From the NCBI GenBank assembly GCA_963741205.1, contig CAVUHW010000032.1:1-26482 (forward strand): 26,482 nucleotides of DNA, given 5' to 3'. Positions 1 through 6,040 of the stretch are shown in pieces. This DNA is from Nitrospirota bacterium. GTDB lineage: Bacteria > Nitrospirota > UBA9217. Every line of letters begins with the position of its first letter. Position 1 is the stretch's first letter. The translations under genes were made by a program, and so were the position numbers. A model generated the notes under the pieces. That model was not told the origin of the DNA, ran no database searches, and saw nothing but the letters and a program-made list of their open reading frames with translations.

Positions 1-3
1 CAG

Positions 4-40
4 TTGACAAACATATACCCTTATATGATATAATATACCC
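4..40 (+). promoter_or_regulatory. sigma70 promoter for tnpA (extended -10), probably giving a leaderless mRNA
   Basis: TGnTATAAT at 26-34 ends 6 nt before ATG 41, with no Shine-Dalgarno. TTGACA at 4-9 (19-bp spacer). Direct repeat ATATACCC at 13-20 and 33-40. Confidence 0.65.
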
Positions 41-613
41 ATGAAGCTTAGCGAATGGGCACGTCAGCAGGGGTTGGCCTATAAGACGGTGTGGCGGATG
101 TGGAAGCTGGGACAGTTGCCGGTGCCGGTTGAGCAGCTGCCGACGGGAACGATTATTGTTCACCCTCCGGCATCGTCCGGCGAGGGCGGCACCGCACTCT
201 ATGCCCGGGTGTCTGGCGCCGATCAGAAGGCCGATTTGGACCGTCAGATAGCCAGGCTCAGCGAGTATGCGGCAAGCCGGCAACTGCGCGTTGTCGAGGT
301 GGTCAAAGAGGTAGGTTCCGGCCTGAACGGACATCGCCGCGCCATGCTTCGCATACTGAGAAATCCCGGTGTAAGCACCGTCATCGTAGAGCATAGGGAC
401 AGGTTAATGAGGTTCGGCATCGAATACGTCGAGGCCGCTCTCGCCGCACAGGGTAGAAAACTCATGGTCATCGAACCTGATGAGATGAAGGACGATATCG
501 TGCGCGATCTCCATGAAGTCATCGTTTCCCTATGTGCAAGACTATACGGCAAGCGCTCGGCAAAGAACCGGGCCAAACGCGCAGTCGAGGCCGCCACCGG
601 AGTCAAGGAATGA
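41..613 (+). CDS. tnpA: IS607-family transposase (MerR-like HTH plus serine recombinase)
   Basis: MKLSEWARQQGLAYKTVWRM HTH, catalytic YARVS, EVGSGLN, EHRDRLMRFG, ARLYGKRS; 190 aa. Confidence 0.95.
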   Translation: MKLSEWARQQGLAYKTVWRMWKLGQLPVPVEQLPTGTIIVHPPASSGEGGTALYARVSGADQKADLDRQIARLSEYAASRQLRVVEVVKEVGSGLNGHRRAMLRILRNPGVSTVIVEHRDRLMRFGIEYVEAALAAQGRKLMVIEPDEMKDDIVRDLHEVIVSLCARLYGKRSAKNRAKRAVEAATGVKE

Positions 614-2148
614 GGGAGCATCGTACCTACCAGTGCCGCATCGCCGCGGACAGCGGCACCGATGCCGCTCTTACGGCCTATGCAGCGCTTTACAGCAAGG
701 CTGAGAGAACGCTTTTTGCCAAGCTACGGTCTGGCGGCAATCTCACCGACCTTAAACGAGAATTTATACCGAAGTTCGGGATAACCGCCAGGCAGTTCAA
801 TGCAATGGCCGCGGTGCTTAAGGGCAAGATCGCATCAATTAAGGAGCGAAGGACCGGACTAATTCAGGAGATGGAGAAAAGGATCGGGAAGGCGAAGAAC
901 GTGCTTTCCGAAATCACCGATCCCGCCAAGAGGCATCAGAAAAAGCGTCGTATCGCAAACCTGGTCACCCGGCTCGATCAACTCAAAGCCGATAAAGAGG
1001 CAGACAATGTCCGCCTCTGCTTTGGAAGCAGGAAGCTGTTCAGATCACAATTTAGTCTTACGGCAAATGAATACGTTTCCCGTACCGACTGGAAGAAGGA
1101 CTGGCAGCAGGCCCGGAGCAGTCAGTTCTTCGTGATCGGGTCAAAGGACGAGACGGCAGGATGTCAGGGATGCGTTGCCACTGCGCAGAGTAGCGGCAGT
1201 ATTTCACTCAAGCTTCGGATGCCGAATGCTTTGGCTCGAAATAGCAAATACCTGGATATTCAGGGTCTCCGGTTTAACCACGGCCATAATGAAATTATTG
1301 CCGCTATATATAGGCGACTGTCCAGTGACAAGTCTCTATGGCAGCCGGTTAACTACCGCTTCGTGAAAGACGCCAAGGGATGGCGGGTGTTCGTCACGGT
1401 GTCTCTTCCTGAAATCCCTCGTATATCGCAAAAAAGCATCGGAGTAGTCGGCATCGATATAAACGCCGGCCATCTGGCTGTTACCGAGACAGACAGATTC
1501 GGCAACCCGGCAGAGTATTTCACGGTTCCCTGCGTTACCTACGGCAAGACATCGAAACAGCGGCTTGCCGTAATCGGCGATGCCGTAAAACAGGCCGTTG
1601 AATTCGCGGTTTTGAAGCAAAAGCCGCTTGTCATCGAGAAACTGGATTTTTCCAAGAAGAAGTCAGTCCTTGAGAAGGAATCCCGTAAATATGCACGGAT
1701 GCTGTCCTCGTTCGCGTATACCGGGATTCAGACAATCTTAAGGGCCAGGGCGTTCGATTCCGGGATAGAGGTTCATGAGGTCAATCCCGCGTACACGTCG
1801 GTAATCGGGAGATTCAAGTTCAGCGCCCGATACGGGATGTCTGCGCATAACAGCGCGGCGCTCGTAATCGGACGGAGGTTCATGGGACTTCGGGAGACGC
1901 TGCCAAATCAGCTTCACGGCACCCTGCCGCTATCCGTGAGAAATCGCGGCAAGCATGTGTGGAGCAAGTGGGCGGCCGTCTCTGGAATCTCTCAAGCAGC
2001 GCATGCAGCGCACGGACGGTCCCGTATTCGACGGGATCCTCGCCGTCACCTGGACTCCCCGCAGGGAGCCAAGGCACGGCTTGCGACCACACCGTCCGTC
2101 GCCGGTGAAATCCCGGCGGGCGAATCGTCACCAGCACTGTTCGGGTGA
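610..2148 (+). CDS. tnpB: TnpB-related RNA-guided protein (IS607-associated, long form, ~512 aa)
   Basis: RuvC-I GIDIN, RuvC-II VIEKLDF, VNPAYTS; RuvC-III reads AHNSAA. Start placed at ATG 610, which overlaps the tnpA stop. Confidence 0.88.
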   Translation: MREHRTYQCRIAADSGTDAALTAYAALYSKAERTLFAKLRSGGNLTDLKREFIPKFGITARQFNAMAAVLKGKIASIKERRTGLIQEMEKRIGKAKNVLSEITDPAKRHQKKRRIANLVTRLDQLKADKEADNVRLCFGSRKLFRSQFSLTANEYVSRTDWKKDWQQARSSQFFVIGSKDETAGCQGCVATAQSSGSISLKLRMPNALARNSKYLDIQGLRFNHGHNEIIAAIYRRLSSDKSLWQPVNYRFVKDAKGWRVFVTVSLPEIPRISQKSIGVVGIDINAGHLAVTETDRFGNPAEYFTVPCVTYGKTSKQRLAVIGDAVKQAVEFAVLKQKPLVIEKLDFSKKKSVLEKESRKYARMLSSFAYTGIQTILRARAFDSGIEVHEVNPAYTSVIGRFKFSARYGMSAHNSAALVIGRRFMGLRETLPNQLHGTLPLSVRNRGKHVWSKWAAVSGISQAAHAAHGRSRIRRDPRRHLDSPQGAKARLATTPSVAGEIPAGESSPALFG

Positions 2149-2210
2149 CGTTATGGACACCAGGAATATTTGTCCATAGATTAAGGAACGACATAATGGT
2201 TGACAGTTAA
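2095..2210 (+). ncRNA. Putative TnpB omega/reRNA 3' scaffold plus flanking guide
   Basis: Three hairpins: CGCCGG/CCGGCG (2100-2118), CGTCACC/GGTGACG (2126-2150), TATGGACA/TGTCCATA (2152-2178). They overlap the tnpB 3' end, as TnpB reRNAs do. The 5' boundary is unknown. Confidence 0.55.
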
Positions 2211-2293
2211 AGAAAAGTGACCTGCCCCTTGCAACGTGGGTTATACTTGAGAACCCGTTCTCAAATACAGAGCCACAACCAAGGAGGCAGGCC

Positions 2294-3406
2294 ATGAAAC
2301 ATTTTATCACATTCGTCGGACTTGATGTACACAAAGATACCATTGATATTGCGATAGCCGAATCAGGTGACGACAAGGAAGTCCGCCATTACGGAAAAAT
2401 CGACGGAGACCTCGTGGCATTGGATAAAGCCATCAGGAAGCTCCGGAGCAAAGGGGCGGAACTTCACTTTGTCTATGAAGCCGGTCCCTGTGGCTATGAT
2501 ATTTATCGTCATCTGACAAGGCAGGGATTTTCGTGCATCGTGGTAGCCCCCTCTCTGATTCCGAAAAAGAGCGGGGACCGGGTCAAGACAGATCGACGTG
2601 ATGCAATAAGCCTTGCCCGTTTGTACCGCTCCGGAGAACTGACAGCAGTTTATGTTCCCCGCGAGGACGACGAAGCCATGCGGGATTTAACCCGTGCGCG
2701 AGAGGACGCAGTCAGCGCATCACGCATCGCCCGTCAGCGGCTTGGGGCCATGCTCCTGCGGCTGGGGTACCGGTATGGCCGCAAATCGTTGTGGAGCACA
2801 GCCCATTTCAACTGGCTGTCCACGATCAAGATGCCGCATCCAGCGCAGCAGATCGCGTTTCAAGAGTATATCCATGCCATCAGGGAATGCAGCGACCGGG
2901 TGAACCGCCTGACTGAACAAATACAACAACTCATCCCGGACTGGAGGCTTGCGCCGGTGGTCAAGGCCCTGCAATCGCTTCGAGGGGTATCAATCATGGT
3001 CGCCACAACCACGATAGCCGAGATTGGCGACTTGAGTCGCTTTGCAAATCCGCGACAGCTTATGGCATATCTGGGTCTGGTGCCGTCCGAGCAATCCAGC
3101 GGGAAGAAGGAAAAACGCGGTGGCATCACCAAAACCGGCAATGGGCATGTCAGGCGCGCCCTTGTGGAGGCAGCGCAAGCATATCATCACCAGGCCCGCG
3201 TCAGCAGGTTACTGCTTGCAAGGCAGGAAGACCTGCCCGATAGCATCCGCAAGATCTCCTGGAAAGCCCAGGTGAGGCTGTGCGGTCGCTTCCGGAAACT
3301 AACCGGCCGGGGGAAAACCAGGAACAAGGTCGTGACCGCGATCGCCCGAGAGCTATCCGCCTTCATGTGGGCCATTGCGAAAGAAGTGCCAATCCAGTAC
3401 GCATAA
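2294..3406 (+). CDS. IS110-family DEDD transposase/recombinase
   Basis: GLDVHK, YEAGPCG, KTDRRDA (DEDD tetrad); C-terminal YLGLVPSEQSSG and GITKTGN; SD AAGGAGG. Confidence 0.95.
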   Translation: MKHFITFVGLDVHKDTIDIAIAESGDDKEVRHYGKIDGDLVALDKAIRKLRSKGAELHFVYEAGPCGYDIYRHLTRQGFSCIVVAPSLIPKKSGDRVKTDRRDAISLARLYRSGELTAVYVPREDDEAMRDLTRAREDAVSASRIARQRLGAMLLRLGYRYGRKSLWSTAHFNWLSTIKMPHPAQQIAFQEYIHAIRECSDRVNRLTEQIQQLIPDWRLAPVVKALQSLRGVSIMVATTTIAEIGDLSRFANPRQLMAYLGLVPSEQSSGKKEKRGGITKTGNGHVRRALVEAAQAYHHQARVSRLLLARQEDLPDSIRKISWKAQVRLCGRFRKLTGRGKTRNKVVTAIARELSAFMWAIAKEVPIQYA

Positions 3407-3494
3407 GCATATTATCAAAGGGCTACGAACCATAAAGGAGGCCATATACAGCAACAATAAAAACATCCAAGGCAGAAGCAGGGACGTGGTCGCG

Positions 3495-3630
3495 TTTTAG
3501 GGAGAACCCTCGAACCTACTATGGAATAAGGCAATGCCGAACTTCCGCTACTAGACCGAGGAAGCTCCCCGGCGAAAACAAGTCATGCGGTCAAACCCGC
3601 GAATATCAGAGTGATCAAACGTCGAACAAC
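3495..3630 (+). ncRNA. Putative bridge/seek RNA with target- and donor-binding loops
   Basis: Stem CCTCG(3508-12)/CGAGG(3557-61) encloses ACCTACT (reverse complement of the right flank AGTAGGT) and GCTACTAG. A second loop contains ATATCAGA (3603-10), matching the predicted circle junction. Confidence 0.65.
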
Positions 3631-4082
3631 AGGCCCCGTCTCTGGTTGTGCCTTGGATCTATACTGAATACGTGAACCTTTATAACAAGGGACAGGGAAA
3701 CTATTTTCTCCTTGACAACTGTCAACCATATCAGTAGGTGTTGTTGCCGACCGGGAAAGAGAAGACTGATCTTTTCTGATTGAAATGTTTAGCGGTAACA
3801 TCATCCTGAAGGTCACAGCCGTTTAGATTTATCGAATGTGTAAGTTTCCCCCCGAATTTATTAACATCCACAAGAAAGACCCTGTTCCCGTTATCCAATC
3901 GGAATATCCAATCGGAATTATTGACAATTCAGGGCATCAAGCATATATTTATTCAACATACCGTGAGAGTTTTAGCATGTTGACTGTGACAGTCGTTAGC
4001 GCAAATCCAATGTTATCATATCAGTAGACCATCCACAATAAAAGATAAGGTGAAGTAATAACATAATGTTCGATGAGGTGTT

Positions 4083-5822
4083 ATGAAGAACAAAACTATT
4101 AACGAGAGAACATTGTTTAATAAAGACGGCTCTCAGACAGCGGAAATGTTTACTACTGTTTTGAACAATATTTCGCAGGGGATGGTCATTGTTGGGCCGG
4201 ACTATACCGTGCTGGCATTCAACAAACAGTTGGAGACAATTTTTGGTTTACCGGAGGGTGCACTCGAGGTAGGCCGTGATTTCAGAGATGTTCTCAAGGG
4301 ATGGGCTGATGTAACGGGACAAACACAGGATATCCTTAAACAGACTTTACGAGAGCTTGACCAGCCCAATCCCTTTGAAATTGAATTCCCGCAAACGAAA
4401 CAAGGGGTTAATCAATGGTGTCTCCTGACCCATCACCCTTTGCCCTCAAAGGGATTTGTGAGGGCATATTCTGACATCACCGCGAGGAAAAAGGCGGATG
4501 AGCAGCATAGGTATGATGCCTTCCACGATCCCCTGACAGGCCTTCCGAACCGGGCACTTTTCATGGACCGGCTCCAACATATCATCACCGTATCGCAACG
4601 ACGACACGGCACTTTTAACTACGCGGTCTTTTTTCTCGACATGGACCGGTTTAAGATCATCAACGACAGCCACGGCCATACCGTCGGCGATCAACTTCTC
4701 ATCGTCGTCGGTCGCAAGCTGGCCGATTGCATCCGGCCCGGAGATACCATCGCGCGGCTGGGTGGTGATGAATTTGCCCTTCTCTTGCAGAACATCAACG
4801 ATCCCGCTAACGCAATCACCGTCGCCGAACGGATCCGTGAAAAATTGGCCGCTCCGCTCGATATCAGAGGCCATAAGATATTCACCTCTATCAGCATAGG
4901 AATCGCCTTAGGCTCGGAAGGCTATGAACGGCCGGAACAGGTCCTTCGCGACGCGGACATCGCGATGTACGAGGCAAAAGGACGGAGAAATGCATCGTAT
5001 GAGATCTTCGATATCAGGCTGCATGCCAATATCCTGGATCGGATGCAACTGGTGGCCGACCTGAGGGGAGCAGTCGACAATAAGGAACTTACTCTCTACT
5101 ATCAGCCCATCATCGACCTGAACAAGCAACAGTTGGCGGGATTTGAAGCACTCGTCCGATGGAATCATCCGAAGCGTGGGCTCATCTACCCCATGGAGTT
5201 CATCCCCTTGGCAGAGGAGCAGGGACTCATCTATCAGATCGGTGCATGGATTCTTCACGAAGCCTGCCGCGAGCTGAAATTACTTCAGACGCGGTACCCC
5301 TCGCAGCAGCCGCTCACTATGAGCATCAACATTTCAAGCAGACAATTCTCGCAGCAGGATCTGGTCGGTATACTATCCGGATGTCTCAAAGAGACAGGAG
5401 TTGATCCGCACACTTTGATATTGGAAATCACCGAGAGTATGATCATGGAGAACGTCAGTGCCGCCGTGGAGACAATGAACCGACTTCGCAACTTAGGGAT
5501 ACAGCTCCATATTGATGATTTTGGCACCGGGCATTCTTCGCTGAGTTACCTGCAACTCTTCCCGGTGAGTGCGCTCAAGATCGACCGCAGTTTTATCAAC
5601 AAACTTACCACGAGCGGTGGCAATCAGGAAATCATCACACACATCGTTTCCCTGGCCAAGAGCCTGAATTTCGAGGTGATTGCAGAAGGAGTCGAAATGG
5701 AGCATCAATTAGCCAACGTCAAGAATCTGCATTGCGGCTATGGCCAGGGTTTCCTCTTTGCCCGTCCCATGGCTTTTAATGCAATTGACGCGTGGATGCA
5801 AGACCATGAGCGTCAAATCTAA
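4083..5822 (+). CDS. PAS-GGDEF-EAL diguanylate cyclase/phosphodiesterase
   Basis: N-terminal PAS fold, HDPLTGLPNR, RPGD I-site, RLGGDEF, FEALVRW, IDDFGTGHSSL, AEGVE, QGFLFARP. Confidence 0.95.
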   Translation: MKNKTINERTLFNKDGSQTAEMFTTVLNNISQGMVIVGPDYTVLAFNKQLETIFGLPEGALEVGRDFRDVLKGWADVTGQTQDILKQTLRELDQPNPFEIEFPQTKQGVNQWCLLTHHPLPSKGFVRAYSDITARKKADEQHRYDAFHDPLTGLPNRALFMDRLQHIITVSQRRHGTFNYAVFFLDMDRFKIINDSHGHTVGDQLLIVVGRKLADCIRPGDTIARLGGDEFALLLQNINDPANAITVAERIREKLAAPLDIRGHKIFTSISIGIALGSEGYERPEQVLRDADIAMYEAKGRRNASYEIFDIRLHANILDRMQLVADLRGAVDNKELTLYYQPIIDLNKQQLAGFEALVRWNHPKRGLIYPMEFIPLAEEQGLIYQIGAWILHEACRELKLLQTRYPSQQPLTMSINISSRQFSQQDLVGILSGCLKETGVDPHTLILEITESMIMENVSAAVETMNRLRNLGIQLHIDDFGTGHSSLSYLQLFPVSALKIDRSFINKLTTSGGNQEIITHIVSLAKSLNFEVIAEGVEMEHQLANVKNLHCGYGQGFLFARPMAFNAIDAWMQDHERQI

Positions 5823-6040
5823 GGCATAATAATTCGGGATCAGGTGTCCGCTAATTGGATCCGTTGTGAACTACGCGAGAGCGTCGCTATAGGAGAGGCC
5901 CAGGATCAGCAAAGAAGCGGATAATTCCGTTTGAAGTATTCAGCGAGCCATCCATCCTGAAGTTCACGCCAGATAGAAATCGCAGATATGCGCACTTCAT
6001 GTCGAACTTCTCTTTTGAACTGACGTCTACATAACGCAAG

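Follow-up and report, generated by a model that had tools for sequence, protein, structure and literature searches.

What does it mean when the right end of a transposon carrying a TnpB-type gene, the place next to which TnpB finds its guide, lies directly against another transposon? The question is raised by the window analysed here, the first 26,482 bases of contig C32 (CAVUHW010000032.1) in a Nitrospirota bacterium assembly of 50 contigs and 4.27 Mb (GCA_963741205.1), whose other contigs are referred to as C2, C8, C9, C12, C15, C20 and so on. The first 3.7 kb of the window hold four co-directional features, namely tnpA, a tnpB-like gene, a DEDD transposase gene and a non-coding tail, the former two in an IS607-family insertion sequence (IS) and the latter two in an IS1111-type element of the IS110 family. 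The right end of the IS607 element and the left end of the IS1111-type element abut exactly. We consider it moderately probable that these two unrelated elements, each of a known kind, lie end to end by accident, the IS1111-type element having arrived first and the IS607 element later, and the guide that the junction would supply to the TnpB-like protein is probably an orphan. The features concerned are the following (omegaRNA denotes the guide RNA of TnpB, and seekRNA or bridge RNA that of the DEDD transposase).

1 to 2190, plus strand: IS607-family element; three other copies end at the same base, and the left end is cut by the contig start
41 to 613, plus strand: tnpA, serine recombinase, 190 aa; NF033518 188.7 bits (cut-off 110), PF00239
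610 to 2148, plus strand: tnpB-like gene, 512 aa, overlapping the tnpA stop at 610-613; TIGR01766 46.2 bits (cut-off 32)
2101 to 2190, plus strand: right-end structured region, a putative 3′ omegaRNA scaffold; hairpins, then the tail AGATTAAGGAACG
2191 to 2210, plus strand: would-be guide template, the first bases of the IS1111-type element
2191 to 3734, plus strand: IS1111-type insertion sequence, 1544 bp; ends taken from the C12 copy and copies in eight relatives
2196 to 2208, no strand: left sub-terminal inverted repeat, 13 nt, 100% complementary to its partner at 3717-3729
2294 to 3406, plus strand: DEDD transposase, 370 aa; PF01548, PF02371, NF033542 269.9 bits (cut-off 140)
3465 to 3658, plus strand: predicted seekRNA/bridge-RNA region within the 3′ non-coding tail; a 25-nt inverted repeat closes it
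3509 to 3561: seekRNA target loop; guides AACCTA(CTA) for the right flank (3513-3521) and CTAC(TAG) for the left flank (3548-3554)
3712 to 3717, plus strand: TTGACA -35 in the right end, 18 nt from CATAAT (2192-2197) in the would-be circle
328 nt ending at 3734, plus strand: non-coding tail of the IS1111-type element
3735 to 3865, plus strand: right half of the IS110 target (TAGGTG...), edge of a dispersed repeat family with copies in C9, C41, C11, C15 and C20

The first element is assigned to the IS607 family as its tnpA product passes the cut-off for IS607 family transposases (NF033518), a tnpB-type gene lies directly downstream of tnpA, and several copies with defined ends are present. A BLAST search of window positions 1-4100 against the whole assembly finds the element at six places in the genome, four of them with a right end, and the similarity of the three other right-end copies stops exactly at window position 2190. 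These copies are C8:510-2699 (94% identical to the window copy), C2:4748-6937 (90%, with frameshifts in tnpA and tnpB) and C15:196416-198133 (93%, with most of tnpA gone); two more, C20:18159-19741 and C20:126792-128299, have both ends missing. Only the C32 and C8 copies look intact, and most of the others are decayed. The TnpB-like family is large (3,749 matches among 8,000 candidates scored), and a sample of 80 related loci from public genomes yielded 43 distinct right ends, most of which read GGA(A/G)CGG, with ACAACGG in the Dehalococcoidia type. Seven identical copies in one Chlamydiae genome diverge only past GGAGCGG. The right end in the window reads ...TAAGGAACG, where the C8, C2 and C15 copies continue with G and then with unrelated flanks; A2191 thus stands where the last G of the family's CGG should be, the window copy having CGA. 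The IS607 boundary lies between 2190 and 2191, to within one base. A first-pass annotation of this DNA had placed it there with the reservation that the true right end might lie elsewhere, for example beyond 3734, and the three other copies together with the 43 family right ends bear out the position at 2190. The matching GG core that the family as a whole carries at both ends is not found here, where the right end reads AAC-GA instead of the AAC-GG of C8, C2, C15 and the family, and the left core of the window copy lies off the contig.

Family comparison indicates that C32 starts about 12 nt inside the IS607 left end, at CAGTTGACAAAC, and it also rules out CAGTTGACAA (window 1-10) as the left-end tip, which it puts that much further to the left. 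The true tip is GG-TTGAAAGCAG-TTGACAAAC with two TTGRC sub-motifs, as seen at C8:500-521 and, in a degenerate version, in C2. The assembly does not contain the left flank of the window copy, the C8 tip being the sole one among the matches listed, with none at contig ends. Upstream of tnpA, locus L061 of the family sample reads ...AAACGG/TTGGCAGCAG (a slash marks a junction here and below), with a right-end-like CGG directly before the left-end tip, an arrangement that resembles a circle junction or a tandem remnant.

The second element shows the DEDD domains, sub-terminal inverted repeats and a non-coding region longer downstream (328 nt) than upstream (103 nt) of the transposase gene; such repeats and a long downstream non-coding region are described as characteristic of the IS1111 group (PMC11187229). 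The genome has a single other copy of its type, at C12:49014-50561, which is 72% identical and has the transposase split between two frames, and a search of 41 genomes gave copies in eight relatives. The left end, ACATAATGG(T/C)TGACAG, opens the element in C12 and in every full or partial copy from the relatives, the left junction reads ...TAG/ACATAATGG in 15 of the 16 other left ends and AAG in one, and the right junction is always ...CATATCAG/. Other copies of each IS thus fix the ends, and the first-pass statement that the bases following the IS607 right end are an IS110 left end with its inverted repeat is confirmed. The left inverted repeat, GGTTGACAGTT at 2198-2208, resembles the IS607 left-end motif GG/TTGACAA of C8:500-521; the spacing between GGTTGACAGTT and the GA core is 8 nt, compared with 10 nt for the corresponding inner motif of a genuine left end, and the right flank of the C15 copy of the IS607 element also starts GG-TTGAC. 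The genome also encodes another IS110-family transposase, unrelated to this one (about 30% identity), of which there are at least three copies, at C5:5727-6590, C9:13298-14161 and C41:14382-15245.

The target preference of the IS1111-type element can be read from its non-coding tail. Aligned 3′ regions of nine elements share the conserved frame CTCG-N6-CTATGG...CTTCCG-N4-TAGA, in which N6 corresponds to the right flank as its reverse complement and N4 corresponds, in the same sense, to the left-flank bases that immediately precede TAG. Guides match their own flanks at a mean of 7.1 of 10 positions (eight distinct elements), compared with 3.7 of 10 in 54 cross pairs, and a TAG core is present in all nine other full-length elements with both flanks (eight distinct). 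Segments of the seekRNA kind are thus found across the family, and in the window copy for the right flank only. The window guides, AACCTA and CTAC, predict the target CTACTAG/TAGGTT. The right flank, TAGGTG, matches at five of six positions; the left flank, which is the IS607 end, matches at none of four, and the core is ACG, not TAG. A 93% identical element with identical guides (L002) sits at CTATTAG/TAGGTG, and near-identical copies (one difference over 652 nt; none over 199 nt) occur in metagenome runs X1, X2 and X4 next to three further left flanks, each ending in CTA+G; for one of these copies the right flank, too, opens with TAGGTG. C9 contains a paralogous site without an insertion, ...CACCTAG/TAGGTGCTGTTGTTGCC... 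(CACCTAG/TAGGTG). The dispersed repeat family (GTTGTTGCCGACCGGGAAAGAG...) begins exactly at the IS110 target, at window 3735-3865, C9:1-80 and C9:913-983, and occurs in C5 and C10 in addition to the contigs listed above; several contigs (C40, C24) terminate in ...AGTAGTAGG(T). This repeat seems to be the natural landing pad of the IS1111-type element. The 11-mer CATATCAGTAG, composed of the IS110 right end and the flank bases next to it, has just two occurrences in the whole 4.27 Mb, at 3727-3737 and 4017-4027; the second occurrence, 290 nt away and upstream of a GGDEF-EAL gene, could be a relic or a pseudo-site. That gene (4083-5822) encodes a 579-aa PAS-GGDEF-EAL protein with a 91% paralogue at C26:277721-279629 and orthologues in all 14 congeners searched.

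On the IS607 side of the junction, folding gives three hairpins at 2101-2117, 2126-2150 and 2153-2177, followed by a single-stranded tail at 2178-2190. The first-pass annotation had the hairpins stop at 2190, which is right for the end of the element; the hairpins themselves stop at 2177. Hairpins 1 and 2 covary across 22 family sequences, with 97.7% of cells paired and eight of 12 pairs changing on both sides; none of 500 shuffles reaches the observed score, and slid controls give 29-47% pairing. A single-sequence fold of 2096-2212 has a z score of -1.76, weak when taken alone. Conservation across the family drops after CGG, at the transposon boundary. These properties fit an omegaRNA scaffold overlapping the last 15 codons of tnpB, and such an overlap would account for the strong conservation of the C-terminal peptide AGEIPAxESSxALFG. 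A scan of window positions 1-6000 against Rfam (E≤1) returned no matches, neither RNA being covered by a curated model. CboIStron is an IS607-family element of Clostridium botulinum with TnpA_S, TnpB and omegaRNA, in which the -1 position is the last scaffold base (Zedaveinyte et al., 10.1101/2023.11.20.567912). By analogy, A2191 would be the -1 base here and 2192 the first base of the guide proper, so that any RNA produced would have the guide CATAATGGTTGACAG....

The protein that would carry this RNA departs from a canonical TnpB. An alignment of 21 homologues shows no variation at D283 and E343 and, at the RuvC-III position, His (H413) in 20 and Asp in the remaining one; there is no Cys cluster between E343 and H413, hence no zinc finger of the C4 type. 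The canonical TnpB combination of D-E-D triad and C4 zinc finger is thus absent. The guided_TnpB model NF040570 scores 52.8 bits (cut-off 100), and the TIGR01766 hit is to a 'TnpB-related' model. The protein has no Pfam match at E≤0.001, and a PDB sequence search returned no TnpB or Cas12, only coiled-coil noise. A TnpB/Cas12f-like fold is nevertheless predicted, as an AlphaFold 2 model (mean predicted local distance difference test score 72.1) has Cas12f, Cas12k and Cas12g as top Foldseek matches (E 1e-8 to 1e-5, template modelling scores 0.27-0.56). A survey of TnpB proteins describes a major clade, RIIIr-4, in which the RuvC-III Asp is replaced by His and the C4 zinc finger is absent, and which its authors predict to be active, conservation of this kind being in their view a likely sign of activity (Altae-Tran et al. 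2023, PMC10691335). The protein fits this description in both respects, a placement by description only. In the text of that survey and of a 59-orthologue screen (PMC10278001) reached by full-text literature search, no activity or transposon-adjacent motif (TAM) for RIIIr-4 was found.

Whether a guide matters depends on the TAM, as the guide of a TnpB is whatever adjoins the right end and its content is uninformative on function without one. In CboIStron the recombinase TnpA_S needs a GG core and prefers TGGG, the TnpB TAM has been shown experimentally to be the same TGGG, and the right end carries TCGG as 'self' (10.1101/2023.11.20.567912). The first-pass annotation had proposed to define the TAM from the IS607 left flank; this flank lies off the contig, but left flanks in the family serve as a proxy. 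A G directly precedes the GG core at 19 of 22 family sites, at least three of the 22 regular-expression picks looking wrong, and in all seven copies of one multicopy Chlamydiae element, with A or G before it; the family right end has C at the position where the left flank has this G, and the C8 left context reads TAG/GG. By analogy with CboIStron, these flanks point to RGGG, which includes the GG core used by TnpA, as the TAM proxy of the family. Fifteen IS110 left ends are preceded by TAGA (13), AAGA (1) or TAGG (1), and a circle junction would give CAGA; a GGG-type motif stands before none of the 15, nor at the circle junction. The TnpB-like protein is therefore not expected to cut, repress or home at other IS110 copies under RNA guidance, and the guide is probably an orphan. 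The position that the annotation gave for the guide template, the IS110 left end including the junction -10, is correct, but the step from there to a TnpB programmed against IS110 is not supported, since the RGGG proxy is not seen before IS110 left ends. Its suggestion that the TnpB could cut, repress or home into the neighbour runs against the missing RGGG, the one-off arrangement and the D-E-H variant. The annotation had itself named a TAM that never precedes IS110 left ends as fatal to its idea, and this is what the inferred motif indicates, RGGG being set against TAGA, AAGA, TAGG and CAGA.

The events that we favour would comprise three steps. The IS1111-type element would have inserted at the seekRNA-programmed site (C)TAG/TAGGT, at the edge of the local repeat; the IS607 element would then have integrated at a non-canonical GA core formed by the last flank base and the first IS1111-type base; and the putative omegaRNA scaffold at the IS607 right end would now run straight into the neighbour's left end. 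The arrangement is unique in what was sampled: one of the four IS607 right ends in the genome abuts IS110, an IS110 transposase occurs in none of the 80 TnpB-family loci, and none of the 16 other IS110 left ends abuts an IS607 end. The reverse order, in which the IS607 element first entered CTAG/TAGGTG at a GT core and the IS1111-type element then inserted off target, mainly by its right-flank guide, appears unlikely. It is consistent with the five of six matches in the right flank, with natural insertions in which poor left-guide matches are tolerated (L003, L005 and L013 score 1 of 4), and with the targeting of other transposons by the IS1111/IS110 members IS4321/IS5075 and ISEc21 (PMC11187229). 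It conflicts with the absence of any left-guide match and with a core of ACG where TAG is found in nine of nine other full-length elements and 15 of 16 other left ends; as TAG falls within both guide blocks, each block would mismatch at two of the three bases nearest the core, and the three metagenome copies of the same variant all sit at CTA+G. Whichever element arrived first, one IS607 core must be non-canonical, namely GA with the IS607 element second and GT with it first; insertion of IS110 first is favoured because the alternative also requires an IS110 insertion without left guide match and TAG core. An assembly chimera, or the joining of a more distant IS607 end to IS110 by deletion or rearrangement, is decidedly improbable. 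The contig does start inside the IS607 left end with the left flank missing, no contig listed bridges the junction and its 22-mer has no exact hits, and the canonical junction base is gone from both elements (GG to GA, TAG to ACG). Against this, no sequence common to both ends exists by which a k-mer assembler might be misled, the contig runs without a break from unique DNA via IS110 into an IS607 copy distinct from that of C8 (94%), and a single shared G satisfies both ends to within a base.

A further rival is that the omegaRNA directs the TnpB-like protein to the left ends or circle junctions of IS110, in sequences such as ...CTAGACATAATGG... or ...TCAGACATAATGG..., with cutting, repression of the junction promoter or homing as the result. 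The guide template contains the -10 CATAAT (2192-2197), which would pair with the -35 TTGACA at 3712-3717 in a circle-junction promoter of the kind proposed for this group (PMC11187229); the C12 copy differs at only one of 16 guide positions; and the scaffold is conserved and covarying, the predicted fold is Cas12f/TnpB-like and the D-E-H residues are kept in 20 of 21 homologues, conservation of a type that the TnpB survey authors take as likely activity (PMC10691335). Set against these points are the lack of a GGG-type motif before 15 of 15 IS110 left ends and at the circle junction, the lack of a reported activity or TAM for the clade in the retrieved text of PMC10691335 and PMC10278001, the uniqueness of the arrangement, and the state of the sole other IS110 copy of this type in the genome, which is 72% identical and frameshifted. 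In addition, the seekRNA guides indicate that the IS607 end was not the site at which IS110 was aimed. We accordingly regard such targeting as very unlikely. Just as little credence attaches to a variant in which the TnpB tolerates non-GGG motifs or binds without cutting, the omegaRNA (with a guide of about 16 nt that includes the -10) thereby hitting IS110 circles or copies, or to the related idea that GGTTGACAG drew TnpA, such pairings being favoured and not random. If such targeting were true, the locus would be a natural case of an RNA-guided transposon re-aimed at another, a mobile-element conflict with one element policing the other.

Several points weigh against the accidental, IS110-first account and its orphan guide. 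The order is an indirect reading from guide mismatch and parsimony. Insertion of IS110 first implies an intermediate with IS110 at TAGGTGTTGTTGCC, a ...CTAG left flank and no IS607, and insertion of IS607 first implies one with the IS607 right end followed by TAGGTGTTGTTG without IS110, that is, joined directly to TAGGTGTTGTTGCC; neither state of the locus was found in the run contigs, the metagenome contigs or 14 congeners. The junction is without independent read support in the run contigs examined. No listed contig of four DNA runs bridges 2190/2191 and none shows a joint, and exact scans of metagenome contigs with the junction 22-mer and with 29 nt of right flank each gave no hits, none of which demonstrates absence. 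Six RNA runs, stored as contigs, contain 0.05-0.16 of the sampled words. The orthologous loci in the 14 congeners share only the GGDEF-EAL gene, from about 4040 on, and the DNA upstream of it in these congeners has no syntenic match in the assembly; these results, too, are no evidence of absence. A simple insertion implies that the IS607 left flank is X-CTA, followed by core and GGTTGAAAG; X-CTA is expected under either order, so this flank cannot settle it. The GA core is itself anomalous, given that the CboIStron TnpA is reported to require GG strictly (10.1101/2023.11.20.567912), and GGTTGACAG of the IS110 inverted repeat may mimic the sub-terminal motif of the IS607 left end, which would make the landing site something other than pure chance. 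As to the guide, the TAM is a proxy from flanks and from a different TnpB clade, and the D-E-H protein may have a relaxed or different one; of the three left-end contexts visible in the genome, two do not give a clean RGGG, the core in C2 being AG and the C32 flank missing.

If the two elements did meet by accident, the juxtaposition may still affect both. Bridge-RNA excision complexes are reported to read the flanks as well as the ends (PMC13626964), and the IS110 copy should excise poorly because its left flank is now foreign and its TAG core mismatched, having lost the sequences with which its seekRNA pairs. In CboIStron excision fails with mismatched cores (10.1101/2023.11.20.567912), and by the same analogy the GA right core may hamper excision of the IS607 copy. 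The tnpA, tnpB and IS110 transposase genes and the seekRNA region are all on the plus strand, and no terminator-like site is found on this strand between 2148 and 2294; read-through from tnpB or a hybrid promoter could therefore express the IS110 transposase and seekRNA. The candidate hybrid promoter, TTGTCC-N16-CATAAT at 2170-2197, combines the IS607 end with the IS110 left end and has 9 of 12 matches; the promoter scan gave three sites against 1.4 expected, which is not significant, and any such promoter may be weak. Apart from the junction, the analysis defines the ends, GG core, RGGG flank motif and covarying hairpins of a large TnpB family without zinc finger, together with the seekRNA guide blocks and the target (C)TAG/TAGGT of a new IS1111-type element.

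Among known systems, the IS607 element is most readily compared with CboIStron (10.1101/2023.11.20.567912), with which it shares a serine-recombinase TnpA followed by tnpB, a family GG core at the ends, a right end in ...CGG, an xGGG formed by left flank and core, and a structured RNA, predicted here, that overlaps the tnpB 3′ end and would take its guide from the flank. It differs in that its TnpB-like protein is a 512-aa D-E-H variant without zinc finger, its right core is GA, its flank is another IS, and it carries no group I intron by the Rfam scan above. The replacement of Asp by His, the loss of the C4 zinc finger, the association with a serine recombinase and the mobility reflected in several copies are shared with RIIIr-4 as described (PMC10691335), membership being putative and judged from the published description.

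For the neighbouring element, a physical tie to another transposon is also reported for IS4321/IS5075, which target the inverted repeats of the Tn21 family, and for ISEc21, which targets a conserved stretch of IS3-family transposase genes (PMC11187229). In those cases the seekRNA specifies the other transposon, whereas here the guides mismatch the IS607 end, at four of four left positions and in the core. In overall design the element resembles ISEc11 and other IS1111-family elements (Siddiquee et al. 2024, PMC11187229), sharing the DEDD transposase, the sub-terminal inverted repeats, the long downstream non-coding region, the two short flank-matching segments and the circle-junction promoter. 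Compared with these, the window element is new, with its own target in a local repeat and with its left flank replaced by the end of an IS607 element.

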